From Macrostomum lignano (lineage: Eukaryota), in contig NIVC01001129.1 of assembly GCA_002269645.1 (NCBI GenBank), positions 177,390 to 241,389 of the forward strand: a stretch of DNA of 64,000 bases. The letters run 5' to 3'. A model generated the notes under the pieces. The model was given only the letters and a program-made list of their open reading frames with translations, was not told where the DNA came from and ran no database searches. The translations under genes and the position numbers were made by a program. This document shows positions 6,425 to 32,410 of this stretch, one piece after another (position 1 is the stretch's first letter; the number at the start of each line of letters is the position of its first letter).

Positions 6425-7096
6425 TCTGCGAATAGTCTATGGTCAAGCCGCCCCCCATATTTGGATATTCTCAACGGGTTATATTTGGATGTACCCATTT
6501 GCAGATGAGCAGTCTGTATATTCCTGTATCAATGCGTTTGCGAGGATATTTTTTACGCTCACATCGTTACACGTTACACTTACATCGGCCGAATTGCATT
6601 GTTTGTTCCGCATGGGATCCTCGGGGCAAGCCTCTTCTTCGCTTGGCAGTGATGGCAGAGCATCATCGTTACCGCATTCAATGAATCGGATGAACTCCAT
6701 CAACTCGTTCATTCGAGGAATGAGGATGACAATCGAGGATGACAATCGGATGAACTCCTTCATACGCCTCGTCACGTCCACCCATACTCAAGTCGCTGAG
6801 AAAGTTGACCTCATTTCCATTCAAGCCGTCAATGCTTTCAATCGGCAAATTCGACCAATTTATCATTCGGATGAGCGGCATGAATAGAGGTAAGGGCAAA
6901 CAGAAGAAATATGAACATGTACCCTCTGCTGCAGAGTTCCAGCTTATAAGACCACAACTTCATTTAACCTGTTTCGTTTATTGTAATTTCAGACTGTTCC
7001 GCCTAACTTTTCGTTCCAGACGTTTTGTCTTTGGCCATCATTTTGCTTGCGCCAAGTGGAAAATGCCTATGACAAAAATCCCTAGAATCGCTTAGT
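6425..7096. mobile_element. MITE-like element with right TIR deleted (complete copy at 31694-32410)
   Basis: Left arm TCTGCGAATAGTCTATGGTCAAGCCGCCCCCCATATTTGGATA present. The ~67 bp containing the right arm seen at 32368-32410 is missing after GCTTAGT. Confidence 0.65.
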
Positions 7097-8494
7097 GAAC
7101 AATTCCCGTCTGGGAAGTTGTGTCCTAGCCGTTTTGTACCGTCCTCGATGCTATGGCAGTTGTGTGTGAAGCGTGACCTCTCGATAATCATACATTGTGC
7201 CTAGTCCCACTTACTACTCAGACTCATGCAGATCAGGGACTGTAGTAAAATTTTCCTGAGTAAATTTGAGTTTCTATCACTTTGCAAGCGTCTCAGGAAC
7301 ACCTCCTGACTAATACAAAGGCCAATAACTCCGTGAAGTGTCTGTATGTCGAAGGCTCCAAGACAATCAATTGACTACATACATTTCTTCTTTTTACTCA
7401 AAAACACTCTAGTGAAAAAAATTATCTTCAAAGATTAGGCGACTTTATTGTCAATTCTCTTTCACAATACGAGGTATCTATATAGGCGCACATGTGCTAC
7501 AAGCACTGGGATTTCTGTAAAGTCTGTTGCGATCCTATTCCCAAAAGATTTCTGAGCTTGAAAGTAGTTGTTTTTTCCACAATTGCGAACCTTCCATGGT
7601 TCTTAATACTCGTAGAAAAGGGCTCTTGAAAATGTTCCTACCGCATTGTCCTTACTTGGGGTGCATGACTTCAAGCAAGCCTATGAGAAACTAAAAGTTC
7701 CTGCGAATCAAATTTTATTCAATTTTAACTATAAAGCGAATCTCCTAAAGAACTTCTTGTTGATTTAAAGTAAGTATGCTCGATTCCAACAAATTCATAT
7801 CTCTCTCGTATTTCTCAGACGCATCCGATTCTGTGTGAGTTTCTTTCTCCCATTTCTAAGAATTCCTTCTGAGTTTGGACAGGTGATGTCGCCAGACGAA
7901 ATTCTCACGAGTTTGAAATTCTTGCCTCGCATTGTTTTCAGTTCCAGCTATTGACACTACTGGAATGGGCACTAGTTTGGTTGGTCCAAGCACTAACAGG
8001 CTCTAAGAATATCTTCTGACATAACTAAGGTGGATGCATGCATGGTGCCTTTTATGTCCATTGACATGCATGCAAACTTATACAAGATGGTACAGATTTC
8101 ATCAGCTAAATATCCCTTTGAGGCTGTCACCCATGACAAGCTCACCCACACAAATCGTAAAATAGCTACAAGTTAGATTTGCTGGTGTCATCGCAGATTC
8201 ACATTTAGATTTTAGTAAAGCTGCACCTACTTACTTACTGTGAGTAGTGTGCTTAGGAAAAGTATTTAAAGAGTGTATTTGCTCAAAGCATCTCCGACTG
8301 TAAATATTATTGATTGCATATAGTTTGTCAGAAAAGTCAAGGCATGCGCAATAATAATAATACTACGCACACGCACTCATTCACACGCTCACGCACTCAT
8401 TCACACGCTCACGCACTCATTCACACGCACTCATTCACACGCACACGCACTCATTCACACGCACACGCACTCATTCACACGCACACGCACTCAT

Positions 8495-9115
8495 TCACAC
8501 GCTCACACAGGGTTTAAAGCGGCCTGAATTTCTAATCGTCAGGCATGTACACTCTCTGTGCCTTGGCGGTTGGCCCTCGTGGCTGTGAATCGCACGACAA
8601 TCCGCCGGCCAATTATTGGTGCACACAAGCCCCAAATGAACTTGGTGCTGGCGCCCCTGGTGCTGGCGCTCCTGGTGCTGGCGCCCCTGGTGCTGGCGCC
8701 CCTGGTGCTGGCGCCCCTGGTGCTGGCGCCCCTGGTGCTGGCGCCCCTGGTGCTGGCGCCCCTGGTGCTGGCGCCCCTGGTGCTAAAGCCACTGGTGCTA
8801 AAGCCACTGGTGCTAAAGCCACTGGTGCTAAAGCCACTGGTGCTAAAGCCACTGGTGCTAAAGCCACTGGTGCTAAAGCCACTGGTGCTAAAGCCACTGG
8901 TGCTAAAGCCACTGGTGCTAAAGCCACTGGTGCTAAAGCCCCTGGTGCTGGCGCACCTAAATGAGTCTGAATTTTGGTTCGATTCGGTGCTTGTGTGCTC
9001 AAAAATTGGCCTTTGGGGTTGTCGTGCAATTCATGCACATGATGGCCAGCCTCCAAGGCACAGTGGGTGTTGCAGAGAGGATTAGAAATTGTCAAGGCCG
9101 CTGTAAACTCTGTAT
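8495..9115. mobile_element. Fold-back module 1: inverted copies of a dispersed repeat flanking a 15-bp minisatellite
   Basis: Left arm ...TGTGCCTTGGCGGTTGGCCC...GCACGACAA...GGCCAATT...GCACACAAGC matches the reverse complement of 8975-9110. Array 8644-8958 holds ~21 units of GGTGCTGGCGCCCCT and GGTGCTAAAGCCACT. Confidence 0.75.
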
Positions 9116-9980: not shown

Positions 9981-10206
9981 CATTATATTTCATTCACACC
10001 AATGAGGGCCAGCCCCCCAAGGCACAGAGAGTGCACATGCCTGACGATTAGAAAGTCAGGGCCGCTGTACACCTACATACTGCTTGAATACGGTATTGCG
10101 CGCTTGCATATGCTTGGCAGTCAGCAGAATGGGCAGACTCGCATCAGAGCTGGTTGAGGGACGATTTTGCTGAAGGCGCTGCACCTGGGAACTCACAGCT
10201 CTCGTG

Positions 10207-10400: not shown

Positions 10401-12955
10401 GAATAGAGACTTCGAGAGAAGAAAATCGATTTATACGCAACTCGAAAATACAAAACTCAAAAGATTCACCGATGCTGCGCATTGAAAACGGAGATATAAA
10501 TATTGAGGAAATAAAATACTTAAATCGAATGCAGCAGCGACAATGCTTTAAAAAACTTCAGTCCGCATATTTCAAAATTCAAAATTCAGTGCTTGAAGAT
10601 TTTCACGCCCCCCGAGCAGCGCGGGGGTGCGGGCGCAGCGCCACCGGAGAGGCAGGTGGGTCTCAGGCCGCCTGGCCTAGAGCTCTCGGTGCAGCAGTTT
10701 GCGGCTGGGCGACGGCGTCGGCCAAGTCGGGGCTGACGACCTTGACCGCCGTGCAGTGCCGCCAGCAAGTCGTGCCATAACGGCGCAGCAGCAGCGAGTT
10801 GCCGGTCACCCGGCAACGTGCCGGCGTGGTCGCCTTTTTGCGTCCGCGTGCTACTTCATCGCCGCCTTGGCGCCGGCGTCCGCGTCTCTCAGCCGCTGCT
10901 CGTTGATGCGGACTCGCTGGGACGGCTGGGCGGCGGGAATGACGTCGTTTGGCCGTCGGCCCATCAGCAGCTCGGCTGGTGCGCGCCCGGTGGCCGTGTA
11001 AGGCGTGTTCCTGTAGGCCAGCAGCCACTCGTCCAGAGCGGCCTTCCAGTCCCGCCGTTCCTCGATGGCAACGCGCACGACTTTGTTGATGGAGCGGTTC
11101 AGTCGCTCTGTCATGCCGTTGGCCGCTGGGTAGTAGGGCGTGATGAGGCGATGCTTGACCCCGTAGCTCGCCAAGAACCGGCCGAGCTCCTTGGACGAGA
11201 AGGGTAATCCATTATCTGTCACGAGCTCCTGCGGGATCCCGAAGTGAGCGAACATCTCTCGTAGGCGGGGTATCAGTGCCTCGGCCGTCGTCGTCTGCAT
11301 GAGCTGCACCTCCGGGAACCCTGAGTAGCGGTCCACGCACACCAGCAGCATGTTGCTGTTGATGGGTCCCACGAAATCGGCGCCGATCGACAGCCAGGCG
11401 CTCGCGGGGATCGGCGTCGGCTGCAGAAGCGTGGCTCGGACGGCTGGCGTGTGCGACGTGACGGCGCAGCTGCAGCATCGACTGACGAACTCCTCCGCTT
11501 GAGTTGCCATCCTCGGCCACCAGACCATCGTGGCGAGCCTCGCGATTGTCTTCTGCGAGCACTGGTGCCCTTCGAGCATATGCTGCCGCAGCTCCGCTGG
11601 CACAAAGATTCGCTGGTGCTGAAGGAGGGACCCCGTCAACCGCAGACAGCTCCTCTCGCAACGCGTGGAGCGACCGTATCTCGGCGTTGGAGCGATCCCA
11701 CCGGCCGCCTTGCGTCGCCGCTGTCGCCGCCCGGATGACTTTGTCACTGGCAGAGCTCTTGCGGATGTCGTCGAGCGTCAGCGCCATTGGCACAGCCGCC
11801 TGCGCCACCTCGTTGATCTAGGCCTCCCTCCGCTGCTCGCCAAAACTTCCGCCGTGCGCGCTTAGGGGCTGCCTGCTGAGTACATCTGCAGCATTGGAGG
11901 CTCCCGGCTGGTACTCGACCTTGAACACTAGGTGCTGGATCCTTAGCGCCATTCGCTCGACTCGTGGAGGCGGCCGCGACCCAGGCGCGAACATGGCAGT
12001 CAGCGGCTTGTGATCAGAGACCACTGTGAACTCGGGCGATCCATGCAGGTAGTACTCAAACTTCAGGCAGCCGAACTTCACGGCCAGTGCCACCTTCTCG
12101 GTTTGCGAGTATCGCCACTCGATGTCGGAGAGGGTCCGGCTGGCGTATGCGACCGGCCTCGAGCTGCCGTCGCACTGGCCTCGCGTCCATGATCAGCTGC
12201 GTGCGCAGTCGCTTGTCGTAGAAAGCCAGCGTTGTCGGCTCCGCGATGCTGCACTTCAGCTGCTCAAAGGCGCTGGCCTGGTCGGCGCCCCACTGCCAGT
12301 CGACGCCCTTCCTGGTCAGGCGCCGCAGCGGCTCCGCCACCTTGGCTAGCTGTGGCGTGAACACGGTGAGGTAGTTCACGAGGCTTAGAAATGAGCGAAG
12401 CTGTCCAATCGTCTCGGCCTCTTGAAGTCTTGAACGGCGGCGACCTTGCTTTCGGTGGCCTGGACTCCTTCCGTCGTGAGCCGCATTCCCATGAACTCGA
12501 TGCTGCTGCACTCCAGTCGGCTCTTCCGAGCGTTCAGCGTGCCGTGCTGCGCCAGGCGGGCCAGACATGCCTCGAGGCTGCTGTTGTGCTCCGCCATCGT
12601 GCGGCCGAACACGACCACGTCGTCGTGGATCCATTTGACGTTGGGCAGGCCTCCTGGGAGGATCTCCTGGGAGGTGGACAAACCCATGCACAGCCGGGTG
12701 AGACAGCGAAGTCCGCGAGGCGTTGAGAATGTTAGCAGGTTGCGGCATTTCTCGGCCACAGGCACCTGGTAGAACGCCTTCGCGATGTCCAGCTCCGAGA
12801 ACACAGTGCTGCCGGCCATGTCCCCGGTCACCTCCTCGAAAGTTGGAATCTGGTGTCGCTCGCGGATGACGTAGCGGTTGACATCGCGGAGGTCCTGCGT
12901 GATGCGCACCTCGCCCGGCTCCTCCATGGGCACGACGACCATCCTCGGTGCGACA
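10207..12955 (-). mobile_element. 5'-truncated, degenerate Ty3/Gypsy LTR retrotransposon (RT-RNaseH-integrase-PPT-3'LTR)
   Basis: RT: FSELDIAKAFYQV...WIHDD (12385-12950). RNase H: EFTVVSDHKPL (11818-12093). Integrase: H..C..C, ADFVGP, VTDNG, TERLNRS (10851-11747). RT-RH-INT order is Gypsy-type. Frameshifts and deletions present; no gag, protease or 5' LTR. Confidence 0.92.
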
Positions 12956-13486
12956 AAGTTTGTCCAAGTCAAAATGCTGAAGAATCTTGGAAAAATGATG
13001 GCTCTTCTGAATCGCTGAAAGAAAAGTTTGTAAGCGTACACTGTGTAGAATTTTACACTGTTTCCCAATCATAAAATATTTTTTATGGAGGAATATCCTG
13101 CAAAAATAAATAATTGTAATGGAAAGTCACTGGATTTAGGAAGTTACAAAATGATTGGTTAGCGAATTTTGGCTTTCAAAACAGAATAGACGTTGAATAC
13201 GAGCTTAAACCAACAATTATTGTCCATAATCTACATGCAAAAACTTTATTGAACTTTCATTTGCCTTTGCAGAAGCAATGCTGATCGTTTCGTTGACTGA
13301 GTTCATTCAACATGTTCAAGGATGCTATGCTTCAGTTTTTTAAGCCAATTGTAATTCACCACCGTTTTGATTGGTTTAGAAACCTTGCATTTAAGATTTG
13401 GCCACGTCGCACTTCCGATTTCCTTGCAAGCAACAAAACTGCATTTTCTAAATAATTTCTTTAAATAGCTGGGATAAATTTGAAAA

Positions 13487-16400
13487 ATGAAAACGTTGAA
13501 TTTAATTCTGCTTCTGCTTTTCTGCTTCCAGTTCGCTGAAAATGTGCTTGGTAAGAATTGATTCGATTTAGAAAAGCTGTACTTTTTGTCTCAGAACTCT
13601 GTTATTAGTGAACTGCTATTAGTAGACTGCTATTAGTAGACTGCTATTAGTAGACTGCTATTAGTAGACTGCTATTAGTAGACTGCTATTAGTAGACTGC
13701 TATTAGTAGACTGCTATTAGTAGACTGCTATTAGTAGACTGCTATTAGTAGACTGCTATTAGTAGACTGCTATTAGTAGACTGCTATTAGTAGACTGCTA
13801 TTCAGAGAAGCATAAGGTATAACGCCTATTGATTTCAACTCTGTATTTTATGAATCCGTGCTTTTAATAGCCTAGCATAGAGTATAATTTGTTAGACTTG
13901 ACCAGAGTTAGGCTAAATTGGAAAATGTTCCGTCAAATGTCTGCAGGTGCCGAGAAAATCACCGTTCCCAAAAACAAGCCTGCTAAGCAGTCTTCGAAGT
14001 TCCACTCAAACGACGACCCAGCCCTGGCCAACAACGGCAACACCGGCGGCTCCCTTGTGCGCCTGTCGAACTGCTTCGAGTGCGCGAACAACGACCCGCT
14101 ACCCTGGTGGATGGTTGACATGGGCGAGATCTACTTTGTCCACCAGGTGAAGGTGTGGAACAGAATCAACTGCTGTGCTGACCGGTTTCGGCAGGTTAGC
14201 GTTGGTAAGTTGCTGCTGCGAAGCTTAGATTGCTGCATGGCTTTGAGATAGATCGATCGGGCAAAAAACTACAGTAAATAGAGAAAAATTTACTGGTGTT
14301 GTATCAAGAAATGTTTTGCTAAGCAAAAGCAAGCTACAGGGCAACGATGAAAATACATGTTTGTTAACGCTTCATGTTCAACGGTATAAACGGAGATCTA
14401 GAACACTCAGATTTACTCAAACTCAGAAACATTGCACAAACAATAAAATATTAGTATTTATATTCAATCAGAAAATGTTTGTGGAATTCCCAAGTATGTG
14501 CCAAAAAGACTTTTGATAGGGCATTACTTTACTTTGCAGCAGAGGGCTTTCAGGGATGAAATGCTATATGCGTTTGAGCTTTAAATGGATGCTTGTAAGA
14601 GGTCCCTTTCATGTAGTAACACGTGCGATGGTCTAAAATTGTGGTAGCATTGTCCATGCATGTTGCCGATTCTCTGTACGGGGTCCGAATTCGGGCTTCA
14701 AAGCAGCTTATCCATGACGAGCTTCACGATCTGAGCTTCACGGGCTGAGGACTTCACCTTGCAGTCCACCTTTCTGGACCTCAACAGAACGGGAGTGTCC
14801 CAGGAGGTGCAAGGTGGCAGTCCGATGGGAGAACATGATGTACATGATCAAGCGAGTGAGTTGCTCGTGCGGGCCACTTGATTAAAAAGCACGGTATCGA
14901 AGGTACCAATTTTTTTCGTAAAAACGAATGTTGAGCACCATGCGTTTCAATTTGTTGACAATGGCGTGCAATGCGATTTAGATAGAACGGTCCAGACCGA
15001 AAGACGCGCCGGTTGCAGGGGGGGGGGGGGGAGACGCCAGAGCCCATCCGTTCTATCAGTTTAACAGTAGAAAGACCACGCTATTTTTCCACATGGGGAA
15101 AGACCATGGGATCCCGGCTCGTCAGGGCCGCGTGGTGGCACTCCGTTGAATTCGAAGGTCCCGAAGGTCGTCCAGACAGAGCTGAATGCTGAACATGGTG
15201 CAGGACCATTGTATAATACGCAGACATACCTGGTTTGGTCCTTGATAGAAAAATCACGATGTTGGCGGTGTCAGCTCGTCGGGGCCGCGTGGTGGCCCTC
15301 CCTTAAAGGTCCCGAAGGTCGCCTGTATGTCACAGGTCAGCCTAGAGGGTCACCCTCGTCCATTTCATTCACCGATTATGTCTACTGACTGAATGCTGCA
15401 TGCAGAAGAGGATTCTTCCACTTCAGTTTTGGAAACGCAGCCGTCTCTGGGATACCGATCAGGTGCTTTTGTTGAAGGTCCCGACAGTCGCCGCCGATGC
15501 TCCAGACGGTGATGAAGGGGACCCTGGTGCCTGAGATGCTGAGAGCAAAAGTCCCTGCGACTGATATGCATAGTTTGTTGAGCCGACGTGGTTTCATGAT
15601 GAAATTTTGTGAGCAGAAAATTTTTTGCCATGTTGGTGGTTTTTGCCACCAGACACCCCGAGGAGAATCGCTGAATATCTCAACGATGCCGATTTTTGTG
15701 ATTCTCGAAGTTGCTTCATCAAATAGAGCGGAAATTTTTTAGCCCGTGTTCTAGATTTTCATGGCAATTGGTTGAATATTCTTGGAGATCGAGACAAAGG
15801 AAAAATTTGTGTATTTGAAATACACCCCATGGTCTTTCTACTGTTATAGGCGATAACGCTAGGGAGGATCGATAGAGAGAAATACAGTACAAGCGCATAA
15901 AACACTGCACAAGGCGAGTATGCATGTAATGTGATGAGTTAGAGACTCTAAGAAGAACAGATTGGTGTTCGCTGGTGTCAGATTGATATTGCAGGAAGCT
16001 TTGGCAGGGTGATAGTCTCCCTTCCATGGTTTTGAGATAAAGACAATCGTGGCTTCCTGCCAGCCACGGTTGCTGAGGAGGTCGAGGAACCTGTCATTTT
16101 CACTGCAGCCTGCTGCTTGAAGATTTTTTCAAGAGTCGAAGAGTTTCCTCTTTCCTGCCAATCAAATTCTCTCCATATTCCAGGTGTGGCTAAAAATCCC
16201 ATCGTATGGACGTCCTTCAACCAGGATCTGTTCGAACGCTGCGGCTACTGGCCCGGGGTGGCCACGGTATCTGATAATCCCATCATATTAACCTGCCCCA
16301 GCCCCATCGGAGGCAGGTACCTGGCCGTGTACAAAAACACCAGTGGACTGAGCGACGGCAGTGCCAGGCTGCACTTTTGCGAGGCTGACATCCTGGCAGG

Positions 16401-18110
16401 TTAGATGGGCCTTTGTAGCTTTGGTAGCTCTTTTGTAGTATTCTGGCAGTTTAAATACAGAATTAGAAAATTCTAACAAAAGAAGCGTCTCTCCAGTCAA
16501 TAAAAAATCACTTCTGAAATCTATCCAGAAAAAAATCTGAATTTTGCACCACGGATGTCTTCAGATACTAATCACAGTTACATAGTTTTGATAGAGCTGA
16601 TTGATGGGCAACTCGGGCCACTGCAGAGGCAGATTCCAGCCAAGGTCTCTGTTGTGTATTGAACGCGTGGGTTTTTTATGCGCGTGAGAATAAGAATTGC
16701 GGAGTCTCGACTGACTCCGCTGCTTTACATTTATATTTGTTAGTAAATGAAGCGTGCACGTTGGGTGTATACACCTGGCCGATCGGCTAAATGTTAAGCA
16801 ATGCTTGAGTTGAATACAATATTGTTGAAACATAAATACGATACAACTGAAGTACTCCATACTAGTACTTAGTACTCACGCCACAACAGTCTCCCTGAGG
16901 AGTGGTTCCTCGACGTTTCCTCGAAATTTAAAATAAGTTGATATAGCTCGTAAAAGACAAGCATGTTTCACTCAAGGACTACTAGACTAGAAGGACACTT
17001 GCAAATCGTGCAAAAATGGTTGAAGGCCGATTATTAAAATGTCTGTATCTCCGAATCGATTGCATGTAGGCTACTTTATTTCGACAGATTGTTCAGATTT
17101 TTGTTCCCTACTGAGTAAGTTTAGTTTCCCACTAGATGTAGATGCTAGAAAAGACTGTACAATCGAGACACCTATATTTTGGGGCGTTTGGTATTTAAAT
17201 CTGTAAGTTTAGGAACCAAATTAATAAAGTGGTGAAAATCTTAGGCGCAAGTTTTTGTGAATACGCTCGTAGTGTCATTAGTGACATTAGTGACGTTTCT
17301 GAAAATATATCGGAGCCTGGAGATCATATACAGAACCCGCATACTTTGGCCTATAGCTACCAGTATCCTTTAAAAACTTGCTTATAAGATGGCCAGTCAT
17401 CAAAAATGAGTGAGAGGAAAAAGTCAAACATCACGAAGCAGACTCCTCTTTTAACATTCTGTTCTAGACAATCTGTAAATTGAAGTGGCAGTAGAATTTA
17501 GCAAGCAAGAAAGAGTTTTGTTTAGTTTATTTGCTTATAATGTTCGCACGGATTCGAACCATGGATGCTTACGCCACTGAGCTACTCGACCTCTTTCACC
17601 TTCGGGGCCAGGAGCATTACTCGTACAGCAATGCATCCATCCATCGATAGGCATCTCGGGCCACTGTAAAAGTATATATATGTCAGCGACGTCGGATTGC
17701 AGTACAGGTTACCTGGTTAAAATTCATGTATTCGAAATTCAGCAGCTGCCGTATTGAATTTAAGTCACAAATATCGGCATCCTTATAGTTCGCTCTGTAC
17801 TAATACAACCTAAAGTTATTAAAACATTTTTTGAATAAAAATTTCAGTCCTAAAGCCGTCCATGATCTCGTTCGAGGCTAAGGTCATTCCGCCAAGGTTC
17901 TCAACGAAGCCAGCCGACTCGCAGCTCGATGGCTCTCCAATTGCTGTCAAGTCGGACATCGCCTGCGTGCGTGAGTGCGGCAGCCACCCAATGTGCCTCT
18001 ACACTTTGTACAAGCAGGGCAACTGCTGGCTGTTCTCATCTGGCAGCATCTCCGATAGCTTCATCAGCATCCTGAGCGGTGGAGATGCCAAGTTTATGCA
18101 GCTGAACTAA
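13487..18110 (+). CDS. Secreted F-type lectin + PAN/apple protein, copy 2 (266 aa)
   Basis: Exons 13487-13550, 13947-14204, 16184-16399, 17848-18110; same sizes and phases as copy 1; GT-AG intact. Confidence 0.9.
13612..13802. repeat. 14-bp minisatellite, ~13.6 copies, intron 1 of copy 2
   Basis: Same unit as 1977-2097. Confidence 0.95.
15062..15846. mobile_element. MITE-like element (paralog of 3349-4134)
   Basis: Same 17-bp inverted ends. Confidence 0.6.
16650..16888. mobile_element. 239-bp solo LTR in intron 3 of copy 2
   Basis: TGTTGTG...CACAACA ends with a perfect 5-bp TSD GTCTC (16645-16649 / 16889-16893); absent from copy 1 intron 3 (~5145). Confidence 0.9.
17541..17594 (-). other. 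Truncated tRNA-derived (SINE-head-like) fragment
   Basis: Minus strand TAGCTCAGTGG (A box) and GGTTCGAATCC (B box) with the anticodon arm missing; not a functional tRNA. Confidence 0.4.
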
Positions 18111-18734
18111 TCATCAAATATTCGGACACTTTTAATTGTAACTAACTGAACTCGAATAATCAAACATTTCTTTAAAACTTTTACGCAGAGCTTATAGCTA
18201 ATGCTGAAAGAATAAAAAAGTGTCTCTATCTACTTACAAATTTTAATGCTGAATAATACCCTCAATGGCAGGTTTATCTTATCCAGAGTAAAGTGCGGGA
18301 AGCAGTCAAATATTTGACAAATTATCTGTTCAATCGGATTTCCAATTTTACAACAATTTTGTTTCTAATTATTTCAAATTTGTAATAACACTATCGAAGA
18401 CAGCTAGTTAGTAAGTACGAGTGCATTGCGTTTTCTAAACGGAATTTTTCATTTTTTAGGATTCGATGCATGGCTTATCATACCGATCTTTTGTCTTTGT
18501 CCAGATGATAAAGAATGGCGTCGTTTCAAGATAAAAAATTCCTAAAATTGTTGGTCCGACCGGGCGTAGCTTGGTTGGGTGTTAAACCAGTGGGGCGTGG
18601 CTCTTGTGCGTTGGTGCGGGGGGTGGTGGGCCGGGCCTTGGTCACGTGCCCGCGGCCTGGGTGGCGTTTATTTAATACGGTGCGGGCTGTCGCTGACCCG
18701 CCAAGCGCGTATTGATTTTTTTTCAATTTTTGCA

Positions 18735-19853
18735 ATGGCTGACCGCGACAAACTTATGCACCTGAGCAAGGTGGCTCTGCAAGCCTTGTGTGCCCACGCT
18801 AACATAAGCAGTCGGGGCAACAAGGCCGACCTTGTCAGCGCCCTGCTCGCAGCCCCAGACCAGTCGTGGACAGATTCGCTGTTGCAGAACATGGAGCAAT
18901 CTGAGCAAGAAGCCGAAGCAGACGACAACATCAGTACGGAGGCGGCTCGGGAGTCGGCGGCGGGCCTGGACGAGGACATCGCGAAGGCGGAGAAGGAGAT
19001 CAGACTGTTGTAGCTACGCAAGGAAGCCGCTCAACTCAAGAGGGAGATCAGAGATCTGCAGCGCGAGTGTCCATCCGCGCGTCCTATGAATCGCGGTGAG
19101 TGTGCCAAGCCTGCTGGCCCCAGTTACTTTCCTGATGGGTGTGATGATGCTGAATTAGACCAAGCTGATAATGGCAATGAGCTGCTTGACAGATTGTTGT
19201 CACAGAACAGGGCCAATGAACGGATGGAGTGTTCTGGTAGACGTAAGGCTCTCCTGGTTCGTGATTTCCTCGACGGCTTTGAGCAGGAAGAGGTGCTGGC
19301 TAATGGTTCTGGTGGCCGAATCACTTACAAGAGCAGAAAACCTAATCCAGATAGCATCACGGCAGCGCAGTATTTGGTAGGCAATTGCAGGCTGATGATG
19401 CAGATGATCAAGGATGGTGCCCTGGTGACTAGTAGAAATGGAACTGCCGACACGACTGATTTGATGAATTACTTACGCTACTCAATACAGATTGGCGAGC
19501 TGTTTGACGCGGGCTTCGGCCTTGCGCAGGTGAATCGTTTTGACGAGGACTACCGCACTAGGCAAGCTGAAACTGGCATGCGATGGGGCAAGGAGTCTTT
19601 CCAACTCGTTGCTAAGCACTTAATCAGAACTGGAACTCCAGCAAACCATGGAGTCAGCAAGTCTTTGCCCCAGCCACGGCAGCAGCGTTTTCAAAAACCA
19701 ATAGACCCCAAGAGCCTCAGAACGCCAGACGGGGAAGAGATCTGCTTGCACTTTAATCGCCGGGGGTGCTTCCGGTCGAGCTGCAAATTCCGGCACGTCT
19801 GCCGCATCTGTTTCGAGGCCCACCCTGAGGCCAACCATTCGACAAAAAACTGA
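18735..19853 (+). CDS. Gag-like ORF1 (SAP-like N-terminus, coiled coil, C-terminal CCCH/CxxC zinc finger), with one in-frame TAG
   Basis: ORFs 18579-19013 and 19086-19853 share a frame and are separated only by TAG 19011-19013. Motifs LMHLSKVALQALCAHANISSRGNKADLVSAL and CLHFNRRGCFRSSCKFRHVCRICFEAH. Confidence 0.8.
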
Positions 19854-19861
19854 AGTCTGCG

Positions 19862-21671
19862 ATGCTCTGTTTTAATCCTAAAATTTTGCCTAATGCTCAG
19901 CCTGCTTTAAATTTTAACAATCCTGTCGTTGGCAGTGCAGGGGGTCGCCTGCGTTTTTGTTCGTGGGATTCTGAGCTTGAGAATGACCCTGATCGGAATT
20001 TTATCCTAGACGGCATCGCAAATTGTTTTCGCATTACTGATGGCAAAGGGCTTTGTGAGACTTTTAATGCCAATTACATGTCTACTTCTACTTTTCATCG
20101 CGCTGTTGAGCTGCAAATTAAGGAAGAGATTGAGAATGGCAGGTATTTGATTGTGCCTAAGAAGCCTACGATGGTCAGCCCTCTGGGAGCAATTCCCAAG
20201 GATAACGGGAAGGTTCGACCTATTCATGACTGCAGCACGCCTCCGGGCTACTCGGTAAATGACCATTATACGAAGAAGCTGAGCCCCAGGTTTGAGTCCG
20301 TCAAGAAGGTTGCAGCCTCTATCGGCAAGGGCTGGTTCATGGCAAAGCTTGACTTGTCGCAAGCTTACAGAAGCGTGGCGATCCATCCGGATGATTACCA
20401 GGCGACCGGCATTGGTTGGCGCTTTAAAGGCAACCGTGATCTGACATGGCTTGTCGACACCCGGCTACCCTTTGGTAGCTGCGCCTCGGTCGAGATTTTC
20501 TACCGGCTTACTCAAGCGGTCAAGAGGATGATGGTGCGACGCGGCGTGGCCAATATTTCGGTTTACCTGGATGATTTTCTGGTTGCGGCCGAGAGCGAGA
20601 AAGAGTGTATGGATGCTCTGAAAGAGCTGATTAAGCTGGTTCGCCAGTTAGGTTTTGGTGTCAATTGGAACAAAGTGGTTGAACCTACGCAATGCTTGGT
20701 GTATCTCGGTGTGAAGATTGATACTGTCCGTGGAGTTCTTAGTGTGCCGGCGGAAAAGTGTGAGGAAATGCGCACCACACTGCTTAACTTTTCGCAGCGC
20801 AGGCGTCTCTCGAAACGACAGCTTTCGTCGCTTTGTGGCAAGCTCAGCTGGGTCGTCCAGGTGGTGCACGCTGGGAGTTGCTTCCTAAGACCCCTGTTCG
20901 ACCTGCTTAATGCCCTGGAAAAGCCACGTCACAAAGTGCGAGTGTCCGCTGACACTGCGTATTTTACTCTGGTGGCGAGGTGCCCTTCTGAAGCTGCCTG
21001 ATTTTCAGCTTTGGAGAAGTTGCACAAACGGCTGGATCATCGAAACCGATGCGAGCAGTGCTGGTGGCGGAGCCATTTTGCGCAATGGTAGCGGTATGGT
21101 GGATTGGCTGTACGTCAATTGGGATCTGGATGCTGGAGGAAAGTTTAAAGACAAGCATATCACGTACAAAGAAGCTATTGTTCCGCTACTGGCTATGGTT
21201 CGCTGGGGTGCCTTTTTAAATGACAGTTCGGTCGTGGTCTACTCCGACTCTAGTGCGACTGTTGGCATGATTAACAGAGGTTGCTGTCGGCAGCCTGAGT
21301 TGCAGCCGCTGTTCCAGACTGCCATGCTCATTGCTGTTAGGCGTGGGGTTGAGGTGCGCGCTTTTCATGTGCCTGGCTGGTACCATGTCTTTGCGGACCC
21401 GTGCTCTAGGCTGCACGCCGTGGACAAAATGCGCGATTTTTTATTTCGGGTGTATGGCTCTGTTGACTGCTGTTTTAACGAGATCGCTAGCCATGCTTTC
21501 TGCCCTGCTGCCTCCATTTTTCTCATTTTACAGGCCCTCCGCGCCAGACTCCCGACCGCCTCAGCAAGCGTTGCGCGTTTATCCTGGGCAATGCCTACGC
21601 GCCCCGCACGAAGCGGAGTTACCGGTCGCAGCTCGCGTCTTGGCTGCGATTTTGCAATTCCCGGCACCTGA
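19862..21671 (+). CDS. DIRS-type reverse transcriptase + RNase H (one +1 frameshift at ~20962-20965)
   Basis: RT: KLDLSQAYRSV, RLPFG, YLDDF. RNase H: TDASSAGGGA, HITYKE, YSDS, ADPCSR. Removing one T from TTTT 20962-20965 joins ORFs 19862-21001 and 20910-21671. Confidence 0.9.
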
Positions 21672-22534
21672 CGCCGCTGCGGGCAGAGCCTGTGCACGTG
21701 GCTGAATACCTGGCCGAGCTGTCCACCCGGCTGTCAGCCTTTCGGAGTTGCCAGGCGTATGCTAACGCGGTCTCGCTGTACTTCAGAGCTCTCGGCCGGC
21801 CGGACCCGTGCGAGTCGTCGATGGTTAAGCTGGTGCTTCGTGGTCTTCGCCGGTGTCTCAGTCGGCAGCAGCGCTCAAGGGAGCCATTCAGAGTCACGGA
21901 TCTCCTCAAGCTACACGCCCACCTGGACCAACGTCTGAAGAGTGACATCGCGTTCTGGGCAGCAGTTCTGGCAGCCTGGTGGGGTATGCTGCGAAAAGCG
22001 AATGTGACGACGCAATCGGGGCAGCTCGATCTGTGGTGCGACCTGGCAGCATCGAGCATCGTCTTTTCAGAGTACGACTGTGAGCTCACTGTGCGGCATT
22101 CGAAGACCAACCAGTTTGGCGATCGAGTTCAGCGAGTGTTTCTTCCGAAACTGCCTGATGGAAGCTTGGGTGTCCTGTGCCCGTTCCGTGCGCTCGAGCG
22201 GCAGCTACGGACAAACCGAATCGGCCTGGCGCCGCGTCCGGTTCACCTGTTCTCCACGTGGTCGTCCGCGGGATGGTTGCCTCTGACGGCTAGCAGGTTT
22301 GATAGCCGGCTTCGTTCGCTCTGCACATCGGCGGGTTTGTCGCCACGCGAGTTCACTGGCCACGGGCTGCGGCGGGGCGGCGCTACGGCAGCCATGCGGC
22401 TCGGTGTTCCACTGCCGATGATCAAGAAGCTGTGCGACTGGAAGGGCAACTCAGTGTTTCGCTATCTATCTGTTCGGGACTCGGATGCCAGGGCGGCTGT
22501 GCATGGCTTGGCTCGTCGGGTTGGCGCGCTCTAA
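21491..22534 (+). CDS. Tyrosine recombinase (ORF3)
   Basis: Frame open from 21491. N-terminal AYAPRTKRSY...WLRFC; catalytic R (MLRK), K (HSKTNQ), HGLRR, W and RYL residues present. First in-frame ATG is only at 21821. Confidence 0.92.
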   Translation, partial: PCFLPCCLHFSHFTGPPRQTPDRLSKRCAFILGNAYAPRTKRSYRSQLASWLRFCNSRHLTPLRAEPVHVAEYLAELSTRLSAFRSCQAYANAVSLYFRALGRPDPCESSMVKLVLRGLRRCLSRQQRSREPFRVTDLLKLHAHLDQRLKSDIAFWAAVLAAWWGMLRKANVTTQSGQLDLWCDLAASSIVFSEYDCELTVRHSKTNQFGDRVQRVFLPKLPDGSLGVLCPFRALERQLRTNRIGLAPRPVHLFSTWSSAGWLPLTASRFDSRLRSLCTSAGLSPREFTGHGLRRGGATAAMRLGVPLPMIKKLCDWKGNSVFRYLSVRDSDARAAVHGLARRVGAL

Positions 22535-23939
22535 CTCTCTCTCTCTCTCTATGTCGAACTTTCTGGTTTGGGTTGGGCCAGGCTCGAACCTGCGCCTCTC
22601 GTGCCAACTGCCTTGACTTCGTCTCACTGGTTTAATAACGTCAGTTAGTTGTTGCTGCTAAATTTCTGCAACAAAAATTGCTGCATTTGCTTTGCAATCG
22701 TAATTTGTTCCTCCCACTTACTACTCAGACTAATGCTGATCAGGAACTGTAGTAAATTTGGCTGAGTAAATTTGAGTTTTCCTCACTTAGAAAGTGTCTC
22801 AGGATCCCCTCGCTAGTTTTCTATTCTTACAAAGGCCAATAAATCTGTGAAGTGTCTGCACGTCGAAGGCTCCAAGACAATCAGAAGATTTCGACTACAT
22901 TTCTTCTTTTACTCAAAAACACTCTAGTGAAAAAAATTATCTTCAAAGACTTTATTGTCAATTCTCTTTCACAATACGAGGTATCTATATAGGCGCACAT
23001 GTGCTACAAGCACTGGGATTTCTGTAAAGTCTGTTGCGATCCTATTCCCAAAAGATTTCTGAGCTTGAAAGTAGTTGTTTTTTCCACAATTGCGAACCTT
23101 CTATGATTCTTAAGACTCGTAGAAAAAGGCTCTTGAAAATGTTCCTACCGCATTGTCCTTACTTGGGGGTTACTGACTTCAAGCAAGCCTATGAGAAACT
23201 AAAAGTTCCTGCGAATCTAATTTTATTCAATATTAACTATAAAGCGAATCTCCTAAAGAACTTCTTGTTGATTTAAAGTAAGTAGCTCGTATGCTCGATT
23301 CCAACAAATTCATATCTCTCTCGTATTTCTCAGACGCATCCGATTCTGTGTGAGTTTCTTTCTCCCATTTCTAAGAATTCCTTCTGAGTTTGGACAGGTG
23401 ATGTCGCCAGACGAAATTCTCACGAGTTTGAAATTCTTGCCTCGCATTGTTTTCAGTTCCAGCTATATTGACACTACTGGAATGGGCACTAGTTTGGTTG
23501 GTCCAAGCACTAACAGGCTCTAAGAATATCTGACATAACTAAGGTGGATGCATGCATGGTGCCTTTTATGTCCATTGACATGCATGCAAACTTATACAAG
23601 ATGGTACAGATTTCATCAGCTAAATATCCCTTTGAGGCTGTCACCCATGACAAGCTCACCCACACAAATCATAAAATAGCTACAAGTTAGATTTGCTGGT
23701 GTCATCGCAGATTCACATTTAGATTTTAGTAAAGCTGCACTAACTTACTTACTGCGAGTAGTGTGCTTGGGAAAAGTAATTAAAGAGTGTATTTGCTCAA
23801 AGCATCTCCGACTGTAAATATTATTGATTGCATATAGTTTGTCAGAAAAGTCAAGGCGGACTGTGCATAACCAATATTTATAATATTAATAATACTACTC
23901 ATTCGCACTCATACACACGCACTCATTCACACGCACTCA

Positions 23940-25430
23940 TACACACGCTCACACAGGGTTTAAAGTGACCTGAATTTCTAATCGTCAGGCATGTACACTG
24001 TGCCTTGGCGGCTGGCCCTCGTGGCTGTGAATCGCACGACAATCCGCCGGCCAATTATTGGTGCACACAAGCCCCAAATGAATATGGCGCTGGCGCCCCT
24101 GGTGCTGGCGCTCCTGGTGCTGGCGCCTCTGGTGCTGGCGCCCCTGGTGCTGGCGCCCCTGGTGCTGGCGCCCCTGGTGCTGGCGCCTCTGGTGCTGGCG
24201 CCCCTGGTGCTGGCGCCCCTGGTGCTGGCGCCCCTGGTGCTGGCGCCTCTGGTGCTGGCGCCCCTGGTGCTGGCGCCCCTGGTGCTGGCGCCCCTGGTGC
24301 TGGCGCCCCTGGTGCTGGCGCCCCTGGTGCTGGCGCCCCTGGTGCTGGCGCCCCTGGTGCTGGCGCCCCTGGTGCTGGCGCCCCTGGTGCTGGCGCCCCT
24401 GGTGCTGGCGCCCCTGGTGCTGGCGCCCCTGGTGCTGGCGCCCCTGGTGCTGGCGCCCCTGGTGCTGGCGCCCCTGGTGCTGTGCTGGCGCCCCTGGTGC
24501 TGGCGCCCCTGGTGCTGGCGCCCCTGGTGCTGGCGCCCCTGGTGCTGGCGCCCCTGGTGCTGGCGCCCCTGGTGCTGGCGCCCCTGGTGCTGGCGCCCCT
24601 GGTGCTGGCGCCCCTGGTGCTGGCGCCCCTGGTGCTGGCGCCCCTGGTGCTGGCGCCCCTGGTGCTGGCGCCCCTGGTGCTGGCGCCTCTATTGCTGGCG
24701 CCCCTAATCGCGTCTGAATTTTGGTTCGATTCGGTGCTTGTGAGCTCGAAAATTGGCCTTTGGGCTTTTCGTGCAATTCACGCACATGATGGCCAGCCTC
24801 CAAGGCACAGGGAGTGTTGCAGAGAGGATTAGAAAGTGTGAGAAGATTTCGCTTTAGCACACTAGAGAGAGGGGAAAGGAGAGAGAGAATTAGGTCTAAG
24901 TGTCTAAACGCTCGAACTCCCACTTCCAGACACTAAGTCTGGGAACAAAAATGTAGTGCACTTACTGTTGCAGGCTCCTCGTCTTTGTCGGGCAGGTTCT
25001 CCGAGCTCGTGTCTTCAAATCTTCTTCTCCGGAGGAATCCCTCAGAGATGTAGCCTCGAGTAGCCTCTGCAGTAAGCTCAAGATGTTTTGAGGCTGCTCC
25101 GAGTCTGAGATTTTTAGCTCGGATTTTGGCTTGTATTTATAGGAAAACTTCGTGAAAAAACAGATTATTTTAGTAGGTGACAGTTTTGCGTTTTAGAAAT
25201 TTGACCCCTATAGAATACATTAGGTTTGAGCATCGAATACCATATTCAGAGTTCTAATTTTAAATGTTGCACAAGATGGTCATTTGTTGCTTTCATGGTC
25301 TTAAATACAGTGTGACAATTTGCAGTTTTTAGCTTTTGAGTTTTTACGTTACTACTTATAGTACTTTACTTTGTACCGTATTTGGAGATCTCTACAAGTC
25401 AAGGCCGCTGTAAACACTGTATTTGGGCGA
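23940..25430. mobile_element. Fold-back module 2; 15-bp array 24086-24705 (~41 units); right arm interrupted by a solo LTR
   Basis: Same arms as 8495-9115. Confidence 0.75.
24837..25396 (-). mobile_element. 560-bp solo-LTR-like insertion
   Basis: Minus strand TGTAGAGA...TCTCACA ends with an internal CCTATAAATAC. Absent from the unit-1 arm (9085 AAATTGTCAAGG). TSD ambiguous (AG or AAGT overlap). Confidence 0.7.
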
Positions 25431-27820: not shown

Positions 27821-30800
27821 ATGAAAACGTTGCCAATGATCTTCAATTTAACTCTGCTGCTGGTTTTCTGCTGCGATTTCGCTCAAAAAGTGCTTGGTAG
27901 GTTTGATTTAACCGCGTCTATCTATCTGTCTATCTATCTATCTATCTACGCTATCTACTATCTATAGCCAGGACCTGCACCGGAGCGGTTACGAAAATTA
28001 GATTTCTCGGTAGTTGCACGTACTCTTTTGCACTACTTGAGTAGTCTGATTTTCGTTCGGCATGGCTGGTTCCAGCAGGTGGTTTTGTCTCGCATAGAGA
28101 CGCCTAACCGCAGTCACTTCTGTGAAACTTGTCTCTGCCTGGCTGAAAGCTTGTAATGAGTGAGTAGGCTGGGTTGGAGGGTAATAGTGGATCGGGAGGG
28201 GCTGTGGGTAGCTGTATAGGAAGGCAGGCCTATACCTGTACCAAGGTGCTCTGACGGTATCCCTCAGGCGCCCTCTGAGCGTACAGCCAGCGACCCTATT
28301 AAAGCTGGAGTGTGCCAGAACCAGGACTGAGTCTGAGCAGGACGAGACCGTTGGCACGGTCATAATAGAAATGGCGGGTTGGCGAAGCAAAGGGTGAAAT
28401 AGTCCCGGCGATTAGCCCTCCTGCCGCTTCAAAGATAAGAGACTGTCTGTTGGCAAGAGTACCCGGGGTTTAGTTGGGGGGGAGGCTCCTTCGGGTTGCC
28501 ACGGCCGTGGGGGCGGTCTTATGACCGGTGTTTTGGCCTATCTAACCCAGGAGAAGGCACGGGCTCCCCTGAATGGTTCACTCTTCTCCCTCTAGCCTCG
28601 GGGAGGTTTATGATTTGTACCCGGGGGTGGTGGGCGGTCGGCCCCAGCATGGTAGCCACGGCTCTAGGCCTTCGGGCCATCCCTAATAGGCTTGGGTCTA
28701 TCTAACCTGGTTTTTGGGCACGGGCTTCCTGACTGGTATGTCGTTCCGCTGTCACTGTCCCCGGGGAGGTTTGGTTTTTTTGATACAGCCCTGTACAGTC
28801 CTCTATAGTCTAACTTGGCTTTTAGTGTACATTAGTACACTCCCTAGTAGGAAACTTATTTATGTCTAGTGGCGTAAGAGCCTATTTCAATGGCTGAGGC
28901 GCCGGAGCACTTATTTAGTTAGTTAGTTAGTCGTTCGGCATGGCTGGTTCCAGCAGGTAGTTCCTCTGGATAAAAGCGCTTACCGCGCCCATTGGCTTTC
29001 CAGCTGCCTTAATCGTTTCCGGTGATCTTGTGTGCGTGCTTTCAGCTTGATTGGCTGCGGCTTGGTGACAACCGGCAAGAGGCATTGCTGCCCATTCCAC
29101 CGACTCCCCTGTGCAGGCACACAAACGCTTGGATATATACGCACAGGCACTCACTCACACAGGAGTGTACAGCGGCCCTAACTTTATTTATCGTTTTGTC
29201 TTGGGGCTTTGGCCCTCAAGGCCATAAAGTGCACGAGCAGAGCCAAGCCGAGATTCCAATTTAGCCCCAAACTGATGTGACTGCACTTGGAATCGAGCCT
29301 GGGCCGCTGGCACACCAGAGCGCCGCGACAGACCACTGGGCTCCGCCCCTCCTAGACTGCTGTTAGTAGAAGCTCGAGATGGGACGTCCAATGAGAAAAT
29401 ATTTCAACTCAGTTTTCTATGAAGAGGTAGCTTCGACAGATCGAATTGAGATTGATACACAAGAATAGGTAGCTTTGGGCAGATTTAACGAATTAGACTA
29501 AATAAATAAATATACTGTCATATGTGCATCGTCTGCAGGTGCCGAGAAAATCACCGTTCCCAAAAACAAGCCTGCTAAGCAGTCTTCAAAGTACCGCTCA
29601 AACGACGACCCAGCCCTGGCCAACAACGGCAACACCGGCGGCTCCCTTGTGCGCCTGTCGAACTGCTTCGAGTGCGCGAACAACGACCCGCTACCCTGGT
29701 GGATGGTTGACATGGGCGAGATCTACTTTGTCCACCAGGTGAAGGTGTGGAACAGAATCAACTGCTGTGCTGACCGGTTTCGGCAGGTTAGCGTTGGTAA
29801 GTTGCTGCTGCGAAGATTTTTTAATCCATTGTTTTACATTAACTACGAGTACATTGCAGCGATGGCAAAAATTTAGGTTTGATTTTTTTCTTTTTCACTA
29901 GTGTACATGTATCTTTTACTAATCGAAATGCTGAGAGCGGCATAAAGCTTGCATTTTGTGTTGGCATATTGGTAGCAATTTCGAGTATTTTATGTCAGCT
30001 CCATTAATCCGAATCAGTTCGACGAGTCTGACTGGTCAATATGCTATAGACGATTATCTTTTTGAAAGGGCAAGAATCACCTGGCAGGCTGGAGCTCAAT
30101 GCTTTATGCCTGCCGCTTGAGAGATTGTTGGTAATTACGAGCGTAATATTAACTTTGCACAAATATTAGCCTGCCTCCAAATTTCCAGAGATTTTTCCAT
30201 AAGAGACTTATGGGATAGTCTTCGTACTTTGAAGATTCGGGCACCTGGCTCAATGTTTCTACTTTGCTAACCCCTGAAATATGCCTCCCTAATCAAATCC
30301 TCTCTATATTCCAGGTGTGGCTAAAAATCCCATCGTATGGACGTCCTTCAACCAGGACCTGTTCGAACGCTGCGGCTACTGGCCCGGGGTGGCCACGGTC
30401 GCTGACAATCCCATCGTGTTCACCTGCCCCAGCCCCATCGGAGGCAGGTACCTGGCCGTGTACAAAAACACCAGCGGACTGAGCGACGGCAGTGCCAGGC
30501 TGCACTTTTGTGAGGCTGACATCCTGGCAGGTTAGATGGACCTTTGTACGAGCGTAGCTTTGGTAGTTCCTTCATATAATGCTCTGGCAGTTCAAATATA
30601 GGAATAATGGGCTACATCACCGTCACTGAGTGTTACTTGGGCTGATTAATAGGCAACAAGATTAAGACGCGCCGGTAGATACTGAGCTACCGTATTTAAT
30701 TTAAGTCACAATTATTGGGTATTTCTAGTTCGCTCTTGACTATCACCTTATTTTATTAAAAATATTCTTAAAAATTAAATTTCATTCCTAAAGCCGTCCA

Positions 30801-31048
30801 TAATCTCGTTCGAGGCTAAGGTCATTCCACCAAGGTTCTCAACGAAGCCAACCGACTCGCAGCTCGATGGCTCTCCGATTGCTGTCAAGTTGAACATCGC
30901 CTGCGTGCGTGAGTGCGGCAGCCACCCAATGTGCCTCTACACTTTGTACAAGCACGGCAACTGCTGGCTGTTCTCATCTGGCAGCATCTCCGATAGCTTC
31001 ATCAGCATCCTGAGCGGTGGAGATGCCAAGTTTATGCAGCTGAACTAA
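27821..31048 (+). CDS. F-type lectin + PAN gene copy 3; exon-4 acceptor mutated (probably lectin-only product or pseudogene)
   Basis: Exons 27821-27896 (MKTLPMIFNLTLLLVFCCDFAQKVL), 29539-29796, 30315-30530 and [30786-31048]. The acceptor reads TTCAT (30781-30785) instead of TTCAG. Confidence 0.8.
28053..28958 (+). mobile_element. ~850-bp insertion ending in (TTAG)n and bounded by a 28-bp direct repeat, intron 1 of copy 3
   Basis: TCGTTCGGCATGGCTGGTTCCAGCAGGT at 28053 and 28931, with TTAGTTAGTTAG just before the second copy. Paralog at 37725-38650. Confidence 0.55.
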
Positions 31049-31260
31049 TCATCATATATTCGCCAACTAACTGAACTCGAATAATTAAACTCTTCTTTAA
31101 AACTTTTACGCAGAGCTTTTAGCCTTTGAAGAATACTAAAAATGTCTCTATTTACCTATAAATTTTTTATGTAGAATAACCTGAGTGGCAGGGTTACCTT
31201 ATCCAGAGTAAAGTGCATGAAACAGTCAAGCAGACATGCAGCTACGATCGTATAGTTAAT

Positions 31261-31398
31261 AAATTAAAATAGCCTAAAGCCTGATCCGGAAAATTTGCAG
31301 TTTTCCCATATAAGTTTCGACGCTGACTTGCCAGAATTGTAGGAGTTCACTTACAACATACAGACAGACAAACATCGCGTCAGTTTTTGTATTAGGGG
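31261..31398 (+). mobile_element. 138-bp Helentron-associated (HINE/DINE-1/Lep1-like) insertion
   Basis: Absent from unit 1 (6130 TTAAT|ATAAGT). Contains ACAGACAGACAAAC and ends TTGTATTAGGGG(AT); no TSD. Confidence 0.5.
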
Positions 31399-31693
31399 AT
31401 AAGTACGAAGCACGAGTGCCTTGCATTTTCTAAAGGGTTTTTTCAGGACTTCTCATAGCCGATATTTTTTGTTTGTCCAGATGTTAACAAATGGAGTCGT
31501 TTTAAGATAAAAAATTCCTAAATATTTTAAAGTCTGTGATTTTTCTGCAACAAAAATTCCTGCCTTGGCTTGTAAATCGTAATTGTGCCTCGATTCGTTT
31601 GGGCCACAAACGATTGTGCTGACGGAAATTGTGAACTAAGTAAATTTTTGCGCGCCTTTCAGGCATCGAAACAGGAATACAACAGATTGCTTA

Positions 31694-32410
31694 TCTGCGA
31701 ATAGTCTATGGTCAAGCCGCCCCCCCATATTTGGATACCCATTTGCAGATGAGCAGTCTGTATATTCCTGTATCAATGCGTTTGCGAGGATATTTTTTAC
31801 ACTCACATCGTTACACGTTACACTCACATCGGCCGAATTGCATGGTTTGTTCCGCATGGGATCCTCGGGGCAAGCCTCTTCTTCGCTTGGCAGTGATGGC
31901 AGAGCATCATCGTTACCGCATTCAATGAATCGGATGAACTCCATCAACTCGTTCATTCATTCGCCTCGATGACAATCGAGGATGACAATCGGATGAACTC
32001 CTTCATTCGCCTCGTCACGTCCACCCATACTCAAGTCGCTGAGAAAGTTGACCTCATTTCCATTCAAGCCGTCAATGCTTTCAATCGGCAAATTCGACCA
32101 ATTTATCATTCGGATGAGCGGCATGAATAAAGGTTAGGGCAAACAGAAGAAATAGGAACATGTAATCCTCTGCTGCAGAGTTCCAGCTTATAAGACCACA
32201 ACTTCATTTAACATGTTTCGTCTATGGTAATTTCAGACTGTTCCGCTTAACTTTTCGTTCCAGACGTTTTGTCTATGGCCATCATTTGGCTTGCGCCAAG
32301 TGGAAAATGCCTGACACAAATCCCTAGAATCGCTTAGTCTCGTCTGGCAAATATAACCCGTTGGGAATATCCAAAGATGGGGGGCGGCTTGACCATAGAC
32401 TATTCGCAGA
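31694..32410. mobile_element. 717-bp MITE-like element with ~43-bp terminal inverted repeats
   Basis: 31694-31737 is the near-perfect reverse complement of 32368-32410. Confidence 0.8.

Follow-up and report, generated by a model that had tools for sequence, protein, structure and literature searches.

A Ngaro-type tyrosine recombinase (YR) retrotransposon of the flatworm Macrostomum lignano belongs to a family that very probably makes a fusion of Gag with reverse transcriptase (RT) as well as RNase H by programmed -1 ribosomal frameshifting, as judged from sequence, reading frames and relatives. The copy described here lies in a stretch of 64,000 nucleotides (GenBank assembly GCA_002269645.1, contig NIVC01001129.1, positions 177,390 to 241,389 of the forward strand), hereafter called the window, whose own numbering is used throughout. 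The top match among named proteins (98% over 53% of the query) bears the label Macrostomum lignano. The letters AAAAAAC stand at 19844-19850, and the gag frame, which opens at ATG 18735, closes TCG ACA AAA AAC TGA, placing this heptamer in the X_XXY_YYZ register. The -1 frame at the junction reads AAA AAA CTG AAG TCT GCG ATG, remains open from 19829 to 21001, and carries an RVT_1 domain (Pfam, E 1e-17). Thus the original prediction, made from the letters alone, was correct in placing A_AAA_AAC in register directly 5' of the gag stop and in identifying the -1 frame as the RT frame, which continues past the junction without a stop.

The window's plus strand holds 14 copies of AAAAAAC and 274 heptamers of the form XXXYYYZ, so the heptamer is not rare by itself, and only its position and its conservation raise it above chance. 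A search of the same genome with the junction returned 38 matches, of which 20 stretches were examined, including 13 near-identical sisters (98-99%); the close copies comprise 30 loci, 27 of them spanning the junction. Conservation of the heptamer and of the -1 offset in sister copies, which had been proposed as a check, was found both in these close copies (exact heptamer in 17 of 27) and in distant families (13 of 17 clusters). The close copies are too young to reveal selection, and the distant families carry more of the argument.

Those families come from a search of the genome with RT in which 150 of 2186 candidates were scored. Sixty RT matches of 46-56% identity, picked to span the visible groups, form 17 clusters. 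The gag end has exact A_AAA_AAC at 44 of these 60 loci, with the stop adjacent in 39 and one codon later in five; the others have a longer A run (two loci), a point variant (two) or an in-frame TGA-CT(A/G/C) (nine), and at three the junction signal was not found. Counted by cluster, 13 have exact A_AAA_AAC, one has A_AAA_AAU, and three, forming one clade, have in-frame UGA-CU. The -1 frame can be traced from the heptamer into the conserved start of Pol in 12 clusters, in one of them by way of a point-variant copy. On an RT tree whose rows come from this genome and from metagenomes (L163 and L168 sit on very long branches, and their placement was not used), the heptamer families represent nine deep lineages, the window's included, and the RT nearest to that of the window family is 1.28 changes per site away.

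Codon use indicates that such persistence is not a by-product of the protein. Of 4428 other gag-frame positions in 18 representatives, none carries AAAAAAC in register; AAG is used 138 times against 52 for AAA, and A occupies only 684 of 4428 third positions. Because gag prefers AAG and avoids third-position A, selection on the residues K-N alone would seldom give this spelling, with p about 0.025 (roughly 1/40) per lineage. Judged by codon use, therefore, the heptamer and its offset are conserved beyond protein constraint.

By its layout and domains, and with an RT tree of own-genome and metagenome rows only, the element is classed as Ngaro under the definition given in the available portions of three papers (PMC8547959, PMC3783388, PMC3266345). 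Its gag, RT/RNase H and YR open reading frames (ORFs) follow one another in this order on one strand, a SAP domain covers Gag residues 7-38 (Pfam), and 10 of the 13 near-identical sisters show the direct-repeat layout A1-ORFs-B1-A2-B2. The same A1-[gag, RT/RNase H, YR]-B1-A2-B2 plan appears in published excerpts on Ngaro, of the order DIRS, for Cafeteria Ngaro1-4 (PMC8547959), fungi (PMC3783388) and Xenopus DIRS-53_XT (PMC9210276), which also share a YR rather than a DDE integrase, the lack of a protease or methyltransferase match, and slightly overlapping ORFs. Four pol proteins gave no protease or methyltransferase match (Pfam; methyltransferase at E <= 0.1), and in the 614-codon pol little sequence follows RNase H; the missing methyltransferase match and this early end set the element apart from DIRS1-like and PAT-like elements. 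Inverted terminal repeats of the DIRS1 type were considered and rejected, given that the ends are direct repeats with only a 16-nucleotide inverted match near them. The element is neither one with long terminal repeats (LTRs) nor a virus.

The window copy itself is defective. It lacks the A2-B2 end of its sisters (one sister likewise stops after B1), its gag is broken by a stop codon in frame at 19011-19013, and a frame break near 20955 splits RT from RNase H. The proposal that a Gag-RT-RNase H protein arises by -1 frameshifting is thus supported at the level of the family, not at that of the window copy. Among the 13 sisters, the 372-codon gag (ending NHSTKN) is intact in seven and a single 614-codon pol ORF in four.

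All translation and splicing events that follow are ones we infer, whereas the sequence, frames, conservation and tree are observed. Full-length RNA would be translated into Gag, and a minority of ribosomes would slip back one base on A_AAA_AAC, with re-pairing of tRNA-Lys and tRNA-Asn. These ribosomes would bypass the adjacent stop and yield a Gag-RT-RNase H fusion, some 980 residues long, in low proportion to Gag. In a close copy with a longer A run (L013/L042), gag and pol make up a single frame of 1036 codons; a shift by one base here is thus enough for a complete fusion, although the copy may be an assembly error. In about half of the families, pausing that promotes the slip would come from a GC-rich hairpin 6-11 nucleotides downstream; in those without a hairpin, the window family among them, the adjacent stop, U-rich motifs or both are the more likely cause, and this is the weakest step of the scheme. 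Available text of one paper ranks A_AAA_AAC among the most shift-prone heptamers on mammalian ribosomes (PMC5009743), and a -1 slippery heptamer and a frame-0 UGA-C stop are described as two routes to Gag-Pol in the portions available of that paper and another (PMC5009743, PMC3159437).

Several observations weigh against frameshifting as the route to Pol in this family. First, the early gag stop puts the window copy's heptamer out of reach from its own gag ATG. Second, 10 of the 27 close copies deviate at the heptamer (four AAAATAC, three AAGAAC, one GAAAAC, one shorter and one longer A run), eight of these being point-changed copies that also bear internal deletions. Third, the pol ATG at 19862 is retained in 23 of the 27. 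Fourth, the signal is not universal, since among 29 metagenome relatives examined pol lies in +1 in four, lies in -1 without a heptamer in two, and is unassignable in eight. Finally, no stable downstream fold was found in the window family: minimum free energies of four segments compared with shuffled sequence gave z from -0.44 to +0.24, and seven of 15 frameshift families, the window's included, have no hairpin, with one more marginal.

The missing stem had been raised as a caveat from the outset, and it holds for the window family but not for the group. The best stem at the window junction, at -4.3 kcal/mol, is equalled or exceeded at 22 of 30 background positions, a crude search revealed no H-type pseudoknot downstream of the heptamer, and consensus folding of seven close copies gave a covariation term of 0.08 and no stimulator. 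One fold offered an extended stem spanning 19859 to roughly 19948, which was discarded as no better than shuffles (z 0.14). Elsewhere, hairpins 6-11 nucleotides 3' of the heptamer surpass 27 or more of 30 background positions in seven of 15 families of this genome, and hairpins at 3-9 nucleotides do so in five of nine metagenome families. The window site thus combines heptamer, register and conservation, but without a stem it is not the textbook three-part -1 signal.

A different feature stands at the same place. The 150 nucleotides after the gag stop contain 34 occurrences of TTTTA across the 18 representatives, compared with none in the matching upstream stretches and 15 in 1000 nucleotides per representative further on. 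Two or three copies lie 5-70 nucleotides past the stop in the window and in 14 of the 17 other representatives, in frameshift and in-frame families and in no fixed reading frame, whereas the motif was not seen at this position in nine metagenome relatives with the heptamer. Its role may be to stimulate recoding, to protect the RNA from nonsense-mediated decay or to direct packaging. As a guess, the adjacent stop codon is the preferred substitute for a hairpin in the window family, with TTTTA as second candidate.

The pol ATG provides the best of the alternatives to frameshifting, though still an improbable one: in the window family, Pol would be made from AUG 19862 by termination and reinitiation, and the heptamer would be a relic or a minor route. 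This AUG lies 8 nucleotides past the stop with a purine at -3, is well kept in close copies, and belongs to a family without a hairpin; stop/AUG overlaps (TGATG) in two other families, one of them also hairpin-less, suit reinitiation as well. Nevertheless, the heptamer is still exact at the RT distance from other families given above, which speaks against this reading. In 12 other frameshift families, the first Met of pol falls at codon 2-14 in three, 30-43 in four and 84-387 in five, so that nine of the 12 lack a Met within the first 29 codons and in five none precedes the first conserved Pol block. Separate initiation therefore fails as a general route, and the caution about pol's own ATG that accompanied the original prediction retains its force for the window family only.

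Frameshifting by ribosomes can also be set against slippage by polymerase, in which the run of six A residues would cause an extra A in some RNAs and so fuse the frames. Copies with longer runs exist in the genome (L013/L042, L085 and L104), although they may be homopolymer assembly errors. Slippage of this kind needs no fixed X_XXY_YYZ register, no nearly invariant final C and no hairpins at ribosomal spacing. Contigs were drawn from four of 24 listed runs whose status as RNA is guessed, and single contigs from three of these runs, belonging to three studies, span the junction and show neither a joint nor an extra base, although contigs drop rare variants. Polymerase slippage is accordingly judged very unlikely.

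More remote still is the idea that Pol comes from a spliced RNA, or from one trans-spliced to a spliced leader, with TTTTA as a branch or acceptor signal and some other role for the heptamer. Flatworms do trans-splice, and TTTTA is strongly enriched just past the gag stop in both types of junction. However, no AG follows TTTTA at a common position or phase (as judged by eye), the long contigs from three studies cross the junction unspliced, and heptamer-keeping metagenome relatives do without the motif at this position. That the conservation reflects chance or a Gag end of K-N, with which most Gags of this genome do finish, deserves scarcely any credence and is largely refuted by codon use and metagenome gag ends, considering that the spelling is always xxA AAA AAC despite the preference for AAG, and that the in-frame clade and many metagenome Gags end otherwise.

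Programmed frameshifting, the preferred reading, seems to have been replaced in one clade. All nine heptamer-less loci of this genome with an intact junction (L120, L121, L139, L125-L128, L134 and L135, with the gag stop at about 2580 once the loci are oriented) read gag-TGA-CT(A/G/C)-pol in one frame. Their three clusters form a single clade on the RT tree (support 100/97), sister to a heptamer family, and a switch from frameshifting to stop-codon readthrough is probable, with the in-frame UGA-CU stop standing in for the shift. The arrangement resembles the readthrough of Moloney murine leukemia virus and the type II UGA-CUA/UGA-CGG readthrough of alphaviruses. It differs from the alphavirus motif in that exact UGA-CUA, a readthrough motif described in the accessible text of PMC3159437, is present at one of the nine loci only, the others having CUG or CUC, and in that no 3' structure was found in 45-nucleotide windows. 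Frameshifting and readthrough would thus alternate within one group, as excerpts of two papers describe for retroviruses (PMC5009743, PMC3159437).

Relatives outside this genome show a broader range of junctions. Of 31 metagenome relatives, 29 were examined, L169 and L171 being left out as weak, short matches. Nine have the heptamer in the register of pol, four of them with a recognisable gag end and five by register alone, and several have one to five more codons before the stop. A single in-frame stop is found in five, one of which has a near-identical fused relative, so that its stop may be a mutation, and gag and pol are fused in one. The four +1 relatives (L155, L159, L164 and L165) represent a third junction type, and the three of them on the RT tree form one clade (89/84). 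No relative was found among viral contigs (24 pattern matches) or prokaryote genomes (one match).

The recombinase presents a separate problem of expression. In the window copy, the first Met of YR is at codon 111, past the N-terminal SAM-like domain, and among the 12 representatives with one it is at codon 60 or later in 11. Near the start of YR, 11 of 13 own-genome representatives have a pyrimidine tract followed by CAG that resembles a phase-1 splice acceptor (AG at 21532-21533 in the window), and so do nine of 14 metagenome relatives at the corresponding position. In 14 of 18 own representatives, a GTRAG donor (in phase 1 in 13) precedes the gag stop by 203-252 codons; in eight of 10 metagenome relatives the distance is 194-240 codons. 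Of the four own representatives without a donor, two belong to a lineage without a YR match and two are decayed copies. The conserved donor is suggestive only, since codon use favours phase-1 GTRAG and the span of distances was chosen post hoc. Taken together, these features make it probable that YR is produced apart from Pol, from a spliced RNA in which roughly the first 120 codons of gag would be joined to YR. Guessed-RNA contigs of the four runs contained no gag-to-YR joint and only a genomic A2-to-B2 link; one such run covered gag and YR without pol and was not used as evidence. Donor and acceptor conservation was noted across the window (19096 and 21533), L084-L137 and L141-L165.

A second frameshift into YR was considered and rejected, since an in-register heptamer occurs in the pol/YR overlap of only four of 13 representatives and at no common place. 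Poulter and Butler 2015, as quoted in the available part of PMC13003380, supposed that YR is reached by frameshift, with which the spliced reading conflicts. The overlap itself differs among families (for example L089-L092 and L081-L084): the pol frame is open across most of YR in some (860-890 codons) and ends after RNase H in others (570-620 codons). One lineage, L105-L109, combines gag and the heptamer with an open pol, some 875 codons in length, whose start is an extended Ala/Pro/Arg repeat linker; it has neither a YR match nor a splice donor and is possibly a YR-less dependent element.

There are well-known precedents for a signal of this kind. Mouse mammary tumor virus (MMTV), human T-cell leukemia virus (HTLV) and bovine leukemia virus use A_AAA_AAC itself. 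Retroviruses and Ty3/gypsy elements that shift by -1 are similar to the window family in having X_XXY_YYZ at the gag end after a Cys/His finger and pol in -1, with a 3' hairpin in many families. They differ in that no protease follows gag here, so any Gag-Pol fusion would not be self-cleaved, and in that the window family lacks a pseudoknot or stem, such as the MMTV pseudoknot described in available text of PMC5009743. Thus the likeness to the gag-pro junctions of MMTV and HTLV that was first drawn extends to the signal but not to the element, a YR retrotransposon without protease.

A literature search yielded no report of a gag-pol shift site or of readthrough for DIRS or Ngaro elements, although gag-pol frameshifting may have been suggested for Ngaro, in a general way, in Goodwin and Poulter 2004 and in Poulter and Butler 2015. 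In their available portions, the Ngaro accounts cited above (PMC8547959, PMC3783388, PMC9210276) name no gag-pol shift site, readthrough state or spliced YR RNA; such a site likewise goes unnamed in the accessible text of PMC6681497, PMC9210276, PMC9341512, PMC7192593 and bioRxiv 2021.01.25.428050, and DIRS elements are unmentioned in that of PMC5009743. The mechanism itself is textbook knowledge from retroviruses and LTR retrotransposons, which limits the surprise.

In the literature surveyed, the translation of overlapping DIRS-order ORFs is left open or guessed at, and the junction offers a precise, short and testable answer for Ngaro. A single genome also provides natural controls, namely families that have a hairpin beside others that lack one, a sister clade with an in-frame stop, and a lineage without YR and donor. 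If frameshifting is correct, Gag-Pol recoding is common to YR elements and to LTR elements and retroviruses, and the hairpin-free A_AAA_AAC-stop is an added case of structure-independent -1 frameshifting in an animal. A bolder proposal, tentative and on balance doubtful, is that animal Ngaro elements run a complete retrovirus-like programme, as yet undescribed for YR retrotransposons. Gag would come from full-length RNA, an uncleaved Gag-RT-RNase H from an ancient A_AAA_AAC -1 shift that was repeatedly swapped for readthrough, and YR from an env-like spliced RNA that supplies the SAP DNA-binding N-terminus of Gag; in hairpin-less flatworm lineages, the adjacent stop and a UUUUA element shared with the readthrough clade would act as a structure-free stimulator of both recodings.

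Table 1. Features of the Ngaro-type copy and its gag/pol junction, in window coordinates.
Feature	Position	Strand	Basis
Ngaro-type YR retrotransposon copy, A1-gag-pol-YR-B1	18552..22636	+	boundaries common to sisters (98-99% identity)
Split direct repeat A1, about 173 nucleotides	18552..18724	+	recurs after B1 in 11/13 near-identical sisters
gag ORF, 372 codons, N-terminal SAP domain	18735..19853	+	Pfam SAP, E 3.6e-5
Predicted splice donor GCG/GTGAGT, intron start 19096, phase 1, gag codon 121	19093..19101	+	conserved GTRAG
Cys/His-rich zinc-finger-like Gag end	19743..19823	+	sequence; same pattern closes gag in relatives from this genome and from metagenomes
pol, RT then RNase H, -1 to gag	19829..21671	+	RVT_1; RNase H-like matches in two related families
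Slippery heptamer A_AAA_AAC, predicted -1 ribosomal frameshift site	19844..19850	+	sequence, frames, comparison with relatives
gag stop TGA adjoining the heptamer on its 3' side	19851..19853	+	adjacent likewise in 39/44 distant own-genome exact-heptamer loci
pol-frame ATG, possible reinitiation start, window family only	19862..19864	+	kept in 23/27 close copies
Repeated TTTTA motifs 3' of gag stop	19870..19916	+	enrichment count in 18 representatives
Tyrosine recombinase ORF, 347 codons	21491..22534	+	Phage_integrase, E 2e-5; Phage_int_SAM_4, E 3e-5, residues 34-100
Predicted splice acceptor, pyrimidine tract and ACAG, exon start 21534, phase 1 of YR frame	21520..21533	+	printed DNA of relatives
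Split direct repeat B1, about 61 nucleotides	22575..22635	+	recurs at far end in 10/13 sisters

The element is inserted in a duplicated host segment, and paralogous sites at about 6140-6320 and 31400-31590 are empty, with the flanks joined. This segment is three- to four-fold duplicated (about 2100-8300, 13800-23800, 29400-33600 and 39100-40800) and includes a PAN-like exon at 17835-18110. On the minus strand, 10663-13126 holds a broken remnant of an LTR-type retroelement with RT, RNase H-like and rve integrase matches in several frames. Arrays of a 15-nucleotide GC-rich repeat occur at 23969-24800, 33783-34500 and 8523-9065, flanked by inverted arms that are common to 10014-10072, 59271-59394 and 63522-63645, and are possibly satellite-filled non-autonomous DNA transposons.
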